Below are positions 3,789 to 4,373 of a DNA stretch of 4,565 nt, piece by piece. The notes under the pieces were generated by a model. That model had not been told where the DNA came from. It ran no database searches and saw only the letters and a program-made list of their open reading frames with translations. The position numbers were made by a program, and so were the translations under genes. Within the stretch, counting starts at the first letter, position 1, and the number at the start of each line of letters is the position of its first letter. The DNA is from a virus (lineage: Duplodnaviria > Heunggongvirae > Uroviricota > Caudoviricetes), in IMG/VR virus record IMGVR_UViG_2660238548_000013; one strand, written 5' to 3'.

Positions 3789-3926
3789 TCACCGGCCACA
3801 GCAATACCACAATGCCGCAGACCAGCCCCCATCCGCCAGCACCGACATGATTCTGCTGGTGAAATCCACCATCACCACCAGAAACAGCAGGAGTGCAGCC
3901 ACAGCCAGGCGCAGTTTTACCGTCAC
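3789..3926 (-). CDS. Small hydrophobic peptide, 45 aa, GTG start overlapping the TerB-like stop (GTGA)
   Basis: GTG at 3926..3924 overlaps TGA of the upstream frame; GGAG 8 nt upstream; translation (M)TVKLRLAVAALLLFLVVMVDFTSRIMSVLADGGWSAALWYCCGR has one clear TM segment; ends with tandem stops TGA TAA. Below the 60-aa cut-off of the ORF track. Confidence 0.35.
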   Translation of the reverse strand: MTVKLRLAVAALLLFLVVMVDFTSRIMSVLADGGWSAALWYCCGR

Positions 3927-4373
3927 AGGTGATTCTCCAGACGAAGCCCCAGAACACCGGCAATCTCTTCCAGCACCTTGCGCTCTTCCGGCTCAATTTC
4001 GCCGTCTGCCTCCGCAATGGCCACCGCCACATCCAGCACATCTTCCGCTTCACGCGTATCGCGTTTCACATCCTCGATCTCACGTAACGCCGCACGACGA
4101 CCAATTTTAAAGTTCGTATCCAGCTGACCGATAATGGTTGCGCTAATCGCATTAATTTCTGACGTAAACGCGGACAGCGCTGGCTGATTACGCAGTACCT
4201 GTTCGATCTTCGCTTTCTAGGAAGCCTCACATTCACCATTTGCACAGGCCACCAGGTAGGCAGCATTAATAACCGCCTGTGCCAGATCGCGTTTCTCAAA
4301 CTTTCCTTTTTCCGGTTAACGTGACACACCAATAACTCTTGTCGAAAAAGCCAGCAAGCTGAAAGACCGGTAT
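3923..4373 (-). pseudogene. TerB-family (tellurite-resistance TerB-like) gene, disrupted: in-frame amber codon, a frameshift, and no usable start
   Basis: Minus-strand translation gives three fragments: frame B ...IPVFQLAGFFDKSYWCVTLTGKRKV* (4373..4296), then PEKGKFEKRDLAQAVINAAYLVACANGECEAS followed by TAG at 4219..4217, then KAKIEQVLRNQPALSAFTSEINAISATIIGQLDTNFKIGRRAALREIEDVKRDTREAEDVLDVAVAIAEADGEIEPEERKVLEEIAGVLGLRLENHL*. Combined length about 155 aa; FFDK N-terminus and two A-(D/N)-G-E motifs match the TerB pattern as I recall it. Frameshift lies near the ggaaaaagg run around 4300-4315. Confidence 0.55.

Follow-up and report, generated by a model that had tools for sequence, protein, structure and literature searches.

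Genes named tciA and tciB take their names from phage P1, where they form part of a three-gene operon and where the names were given by similarity (PMC9603915, PMC10695390). The TciA of P1 resembles TerB. These genes are not essential to P1 (PMC10695390), and about half of the subgroup-1 P1-like phage-plasmids lack the operon (PMC9603915); the tci genes thus behave as a dispensable, often-lost cargo module. The locus described here is likened to that of P1 through the literature; it lies in a different genomic context, and no tciC is seen in the analysed window.

Lambdoid phages also carry a TciA (Evi, JLK-2012 and PPyecE_EH1910; in RefSeq 'tellurite resistance TerB family protein', for example WP_001303509.1 and WP_001304604.1), encoded 3' of Q and of tRNA genes, and 5' of tciB and nanS-p. 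Only passing mentions in annotation tables were found in the literature for tciA in lambdoid phages, or for TerB beside nanS-p. The TerB protein of the terZABCDEF cluster (PDB 2JXU, from Klebsiella pneumoniae) has the same domain as TciA, with two DG....E motifs, whereas TciA is the product of a stand-alone phage gene, paired with a gene for a DUF3927 membrane protein and not located in a ter operon. TerB domains are also contained in the anti-phage systems Bunzi and Shango, where the domain is proposed to serve in membrane surveillance (Millman et al. 2022, bioRxiv 10.1101/2022.05.11.491447); their partner helicase and ATPase genes are absent here. Membership of a defence system was considered and rejected, as PADLOC-DB v2 returned no significant match for either protein (TciA: best PDC-S48, E 0.0035, over 35 residues; TciB: none).

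The arrangement in which the genes are found is that of the stx, or moron, slot of Stx-converting lambdoid phages, where Q, pR', tR', tRNA genes in some cases, cargo, nanS-p and holin follow each other in the same order as here. In those phages the cargo is stx, whereas here it appears to be a dead tciAB cassette.

The prophage and its late-operon slot

The window, i.e. the whole stretch of 4565 bp that was analysed, is E. coli prophage DNA, with all genes on the minus strand; the parts of the late operon described below are on the same strand. Positions 124-4565 are 99.8% identical to E. coli O103:H2 strain 12009 (NC_013353.1, 1790559-1795001), with 7 differences across 4.4 kb, and other STEC of serotypes O103, O45 and O121 are about as close to the window as 12009. 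The 12009 element is inserted in ydfJ, and is a defective prophage, since it lacks lysozyme, Rz and all morphogenesis genes; it is of the Shiga-toxin-type lambdoid kind, and truncated by an IS. Both the defective state of the prophage and the IS cut had escaped the initial annotation, as had a frameshift in tciB, described below.

At the upstream end, the Q antiterminator gene (822-bp type) has its 3' end at 4523..4565, according to the PGAP annotation of three related loci, L001 (strain 2011C-4251), L002 (O157:H7 F8798) and L009. It is followed by a pR'-like late promoter (4478..4517), composed of TTGATT, a 16-nt spacer and TGgTAAATT; next comes the pause element AACGAT. Both this element and the -10 (TAAATT) can be aligned with lambda pR', and the assignment is based on this alignment, as the promoter fell below the threshold of the consensus scan and is absent from its list for the window. 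A tR'-like intrinsic terminator follows at 4425..4442, formed by a hairpin, whose 3' side aligns with lambda tR', and a T-run. This terminator lies only about 50 nt after pR'; the 6S RNA of lambda is 194 nt long, and a constitutive short late transcript made here would be much shorter. A second hairpin, at 4489-4473, overlaps the pause element.

An untranslated late-operon leader (4305..4424) separates the terminator from the tciA remnant (3923..4303), which is followed by tciB (3789..3926) and by nanS-p, encoding a SASA esterase (1508..3445). Further along the minus strand are found DUF1378, DUF826, a class II holin and a ydfR-family gene. The lambda-like pR'/tR' anatomy upstream of it places the remnant in the cargo slot of the late operon, which in Stx phages is occupied by stx. 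The initial annotation had proposed a decaying accessory gene in the moron position, and this was borne out: the gene lies in the late operon, between Q/tR' on one side and nanS-p and the lysis genes on the other, and RefSeq lists it as a pseudogene.

Two other features of the window were recorded. Between tciB and nanS-p there is a full-length match to the STnc100 sRNA (3586..3752; Rfam RF02076, 101.6 bits against a gathering threshold of 47, E 3.9e-22), followed by a GC-rich, terminator-like hairpin (3558-3540) with a T-run; the only PGAP feature near it is a fragmentary plus-strand pseudo-ORF, at the equivalent of window 3422-3565. Positions 1-127 correspond to the end of an IS3-family element of the IS629/IS1203 type, 100% identical to the IS copy of 12009 and in the opposite orientation. 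This end breaks up the ydfR-family gene that follows the holin, and the 171-aa ORF at 60..575 is a ydfR-IS read-through fusion; 12009 also carries a 61-bp duplicated fragment of ydfR.

The tciA remnant and its amber codon

Intact tciA is a 143-aa ORF beginning MFGIFKKKTRRAAAEIKKFEKRDLAQ..., which overlaps the start of tciB, a DUF3927 gene of 55 aa. It is carried by the three lambdoid phages named above (as tciA in JLK-2012 and as 'TciA/TerB-like' in PPyecE_EH1910), and by prophages in O157:H7 F7386 and in strain CUVET21-H2. Its true N-terminus is MFGIFKKKTRRAAAEIKK (MFGIFKKK...). The intact protein scores 60.2 bits against Pfam PF05099, TerB (E 2.9e-16), and aligns to 2JXU over residues 14-137 (phmmer, E 4.4e-8), with both DG....E motifs in register. 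TciA is a single-domain TerB protein, and its gene is predicted to be translationally coupled to tciB, whose product would be a small two-helix membrane protein. Among intact copies pS reaches 0.18-0.46 while pN does not exceed 0.02, and the resulting pN/pS of 0.01-0.07 indicates strong purifying selection on intact tciA in phages. Within the clade carrying the stop codon described below, pN/pS is 0.26-1.3, a range resting on fewer than 10 substitutions.

In the window, the minus-strand frame 4303..3923 reads KFEKRDLAQAVINAAYLVACANGECEAS, a stop codon, KAKIEQ...LENHL and the terminal stop, and corresponds to codons 18-143 of tciA. With the internal stop masked, it scores 38.5 bits against PF05099 (E 1.6e-9, covering 2-109 of the 118 profile positions), above the gathering cutoff of 24.4 bits by which the family is assigned, and the portion following the stop has a match in PHROG 632, 'tellurite resistance' (5e-42). 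The TerB-like frame reported by the initial annotation is thereby confirmed. The DNA is 90-98% identical to the intact tciA of L003-L006 and L008, and the gene order is that of lambdoid TciA: the remnant lies 3' of Q/tR', overlaps tciB directly downstream and is followed by nanS-p. NCBIfam yielded only sub-threshold matches of the DjlA type, attributed to the shared TerB-like domain.

Against the 143-aa PHROG 632 profile, a single frame is open only at positions 47-143, and neither the full length nor a start is present. PGAP annotates a pseudogene, 'TerB family, internal stop', at the equivalent of 3923..4285. On the basis of these comparisons, the remnant is best described as a pseudogene derived from the TciA family of PHROG 632, and not as a functional member of it. 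Its ancestry is that of a TerB protein, and the two-motif pattern of the family would no longer be present as such: the second DG....E motif, AEADGEIEPEER, is intact, and the first is damaged by D39N and by the change of Glu46 into a stop codon.

The in-frame TAG at 4219..4217, which had been correctly reported, replaces a GAG found in all five intact copies of a nine-sequence alignment. The alignment to 2JXU identifies Glu46 as the Glu conserved in the first DG....E motif. Besides the window, L001, L002 and L007 (strain 95NR1) have TAG at this codon. The L007 copy is a full-length tciA, with ATG and upstream tRNA genes, and yet it bears the identical TAG; the nonsense allele therefore exists apart from the 5' truncation discussed below. 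As full-length copies elsewhere bear it, the TAG probably preceded the truncation.

The possibility that a phage-encoded tRNA suppresses the amber codon was considered and rejected. ARAGORN detects no tRNA gene within the window, and the tRNA arrays adjoining tciA in related loci include only Arg, Lys, Met(Ile), Gly and Asn, none of them with a CTA anticodon. Suppression is in any case unsupported, since the remnant has no start codon.

Decay extends beyond the amber codon. Aspartate 39, in the first ADG motif, is replaced by Asn (AAT, 4238..4240), as determined by alignment with the other tciA copies; D39N is specific to the clade formed by the window, O103 and 2011C-4251, and D39N together with H98R is common to the window, L001 and 12009. 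In tciB, a -1 deletion in a G-run (C-run 3826-3830 on the plus strand) leaves 45 aa, compared with the 55 aa of the intact form, which would end at 3760. Of the 53 positions of the DUF3927 profile, the 45-aa form covers only 2-34, and the second hydrophobic segment is lost; L002 still has a tciB of 55 aa. RefSeq enters the shortened product as an ordinary protein (WP_001435346.1). The GTG start of tciB overlaps the stop codon of tciA as GTGA, an overlap by which the loss of tciA translation should also lower that of tciB.

The remnant might still yield a functional small product, either a 48-aa C-terminal peptide or a regulatory RNA within the late transcript. The ORF 4069..3923 is open, starts with GTG at 4069, carries the second DG....E motif and is coupled to tciB; similar 48-aa ORFs form phrog_3920, and the remnant is kept at 97-99% identity in hundreds of genomes. 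This level of identity is, however, accounted for by recent shared ancestry and by prophages recombining with each other, and phrog_3920 is most simply read as a set of gene-caller artefacts from similar pseudogenes. A GAGGA motif stops just one base ahead of the GTG, an unfavourable spacing for a Shine-Dalgarno sequence, half a TerB domain is unlikely to fold, and the tciB gene downstream is itself frameshifted. Taken together, these data make a surviving product of either type quite improbable.

The 5' end of the remnant

DNA homology to every tciA copy compared stops at 4304, i.e. at codon 18. Beyond this point, the window matches a different part of two of the phage loci containing intact tciA: positions 4302-4446 are 91% identical to L004 6125-6268, and positions 4302-4527 are 94% identical to L008 4954-5179. 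In both loci the matching stretch is untranslated DNA located directly 3' of Q, and stops 5-6 nt short of the ATG of a hypothetical gene of 65 aa, which is followed by a DNA methylase gene, three tRNA genes, intact tciA, tciB and nanS-p; the three tRNA genes are annotated in L008, and ARAGORN detects no tRNA in L004. An intact tciA that has its own start is thus located 1.9-2.6 kb beyond the leader.

The junction lies at 4299..4312. The leader parent reads CCGGAAAAGGGAAAAAG|ACATG, the tciA parent GAAATTAAAAAG|TTTGAG, and the window CCGGAAAAAGGAAAG|TTTGAG. The corresponding deletion measures 1925 bp on the L008 scale and 2578 bp on the L004 scale, and the junction falls within an A/G-rich microhomology (AAAAAG in present-day relatives of both parents). 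The microhomology is approximate, as the present-day relatives show A-runs a few bases different from those at the junction, and the exact parent of the deletion is not among these relatives. No ATG, GTG or TTG is found in frame between the TAA at 4319..4317 and codon 18, and the remnant is therefore without a start codon.

The initial annotation had assembled from this region a protein of about 155 aa, with an FFDK N-terminus of its own, broken by three independent lesions: the amber codon, a frameshift near the A-rich run at 4300-4315 and a lost start ahead of FFDK. Alignment with the intact homologues upholds the amber site, and resolves the other two lesions into the one junction at 4304. 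The reading frame does change at 4300-4315, but at a deletion junction where homology ends, with no frameshift within the gene. The remnant does lack a start codon, but FFDK belongs to leader DNA, and the start was removed by the same event. A single deletion of 1.9-2.6 kb at an A-rich microhomology accounts for both. The disabling events in tciA are two, the nonsense codon and the 5' deletion, in addition to the D39N missense change and to the frameshift in the neighbouring gene.

It is true that the frame fragments abut on the same strand, that a TGA is present just upstream, at 4376..4374, as reported, and that the small hydrophobic and basic GFFDK peptide superficially resembles the N-termini of TerB-like proteins. 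The peptide, however, has no Pfam match, and the true protein starts with MFGIFKKK and is 143 aa long. The leader, reading ...AGFFDKSYW... in one frame, coexists with a complete tciA in the same phage genomes (L004 and L008), and FFDK is therefore not the N-terminus of a TerB protein; this assignment was rejected, because DNA homology places the segment in the leader 3' of Q. A gene of about 155 aa, carrying its own FFDK N-terminus and hit three times, is accordingly very improbable.

The amber allele and the junction were searched for in deposited genomes. Of 5426 complete E. coli genomes, 577 contain an exact 41-mer spanning the TAG, at a total of 962 sites with up to 5 copies per genome, and the 41-mer occurs in none of 50,697 deposited phage records; a near-full tciA, of any allele, is found in 803 of the complete E. 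coli genomes. The amber allele occurs in both full-length and 5'-deleted copies, and in serotypes O157 (including O157:H7), O26, O103, O111, O121 and O145. A 60-mer spanning the junction is complete in 501 complete E. coli genomes. That the lesions are sequencing or assembly artefacts hiding an intact ORF can hardly be entertained: the junction and the tciB frameshift do lie in homopolymer-rich DNA, error-prone on some platforms, but the identical TAG and junction recur in these hundreds of independent genomes, from many laboratories and serotypes, and PGAP flags a pseudogene in 3 of the 3 inspected loci with the 5'-deleted form (L001, L002 and L009). The initial annotation, too, had preferred decay to sequencing error.

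The best explanation, to which we assign a probability of about 0.9, is that the locus is a non-functional remnant of a tciA-tciB moron, in which tciA was killed by the amber codon at Glu46 and by one 5' deletion. A G to T change would have turned the conserved Glu46 codon into an amber codon. One deletion of 1.9-2.6 kb would then have taken the 65-aa gene, the DNA methylase gene, the three tRNA genes, and the ribosome binding site, start codon and first 17 codons of tciA, joining the leader 3' of tR' to codon 18. D39N in tciA and the -1 frameshift in tciB would represent later decay. No protein would be expected from the locus, whose DNA would be transcribed only passively, upon antitermination by Q.

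Spread of the null allele

The pseudogene is ordinary, and already annotated by RefSeq; beyond its correct annotation, the locus matters little. It illustrates how cargo decays in the stx slot, through a nonsense mutation, a microhomology deletion which also removes a methylase gene and three tRNA genes, and a homopolymer frameshift, and how a null allele may spread over many STEC lineages by prophage recombination. It also teaches that a change of frame beside an A-rich run should be compared with homologues before being named a frameshift; here, the comparison led to a deletion junction and to leader DNA.

The occurrence of the amber allele in so many E. coli genomes and serotypes, in multiple copies, and in none of the phage genomes could suggest that resident STEC prophages are under selection to lose TciA, for instance if TerB expressed from the late operon were costly, or redundant with the chromosomal ter island. 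We regard selection for loss as unlikely. The distribution is most simply accounted for by a null allele hitch-hiking through recombination between co-resident lambdoid prophages.

Two further observations concern related prophages. In L007, where the full-length tciA with TAG lies at 2665-3093, the annotation of the adjacent nanS-p homologue (333-2186) likewise includes an internal stop, a case of parallel decay of late-operon cargo in another prophage. In the window, four of the seven differences from 12009 are clustered within the dead tciA (4259, 4262, 4265 and 4271), and all four are synonymous; they match the state of other tciA copies, which points to a short gene-conversion patch between prophage copies.
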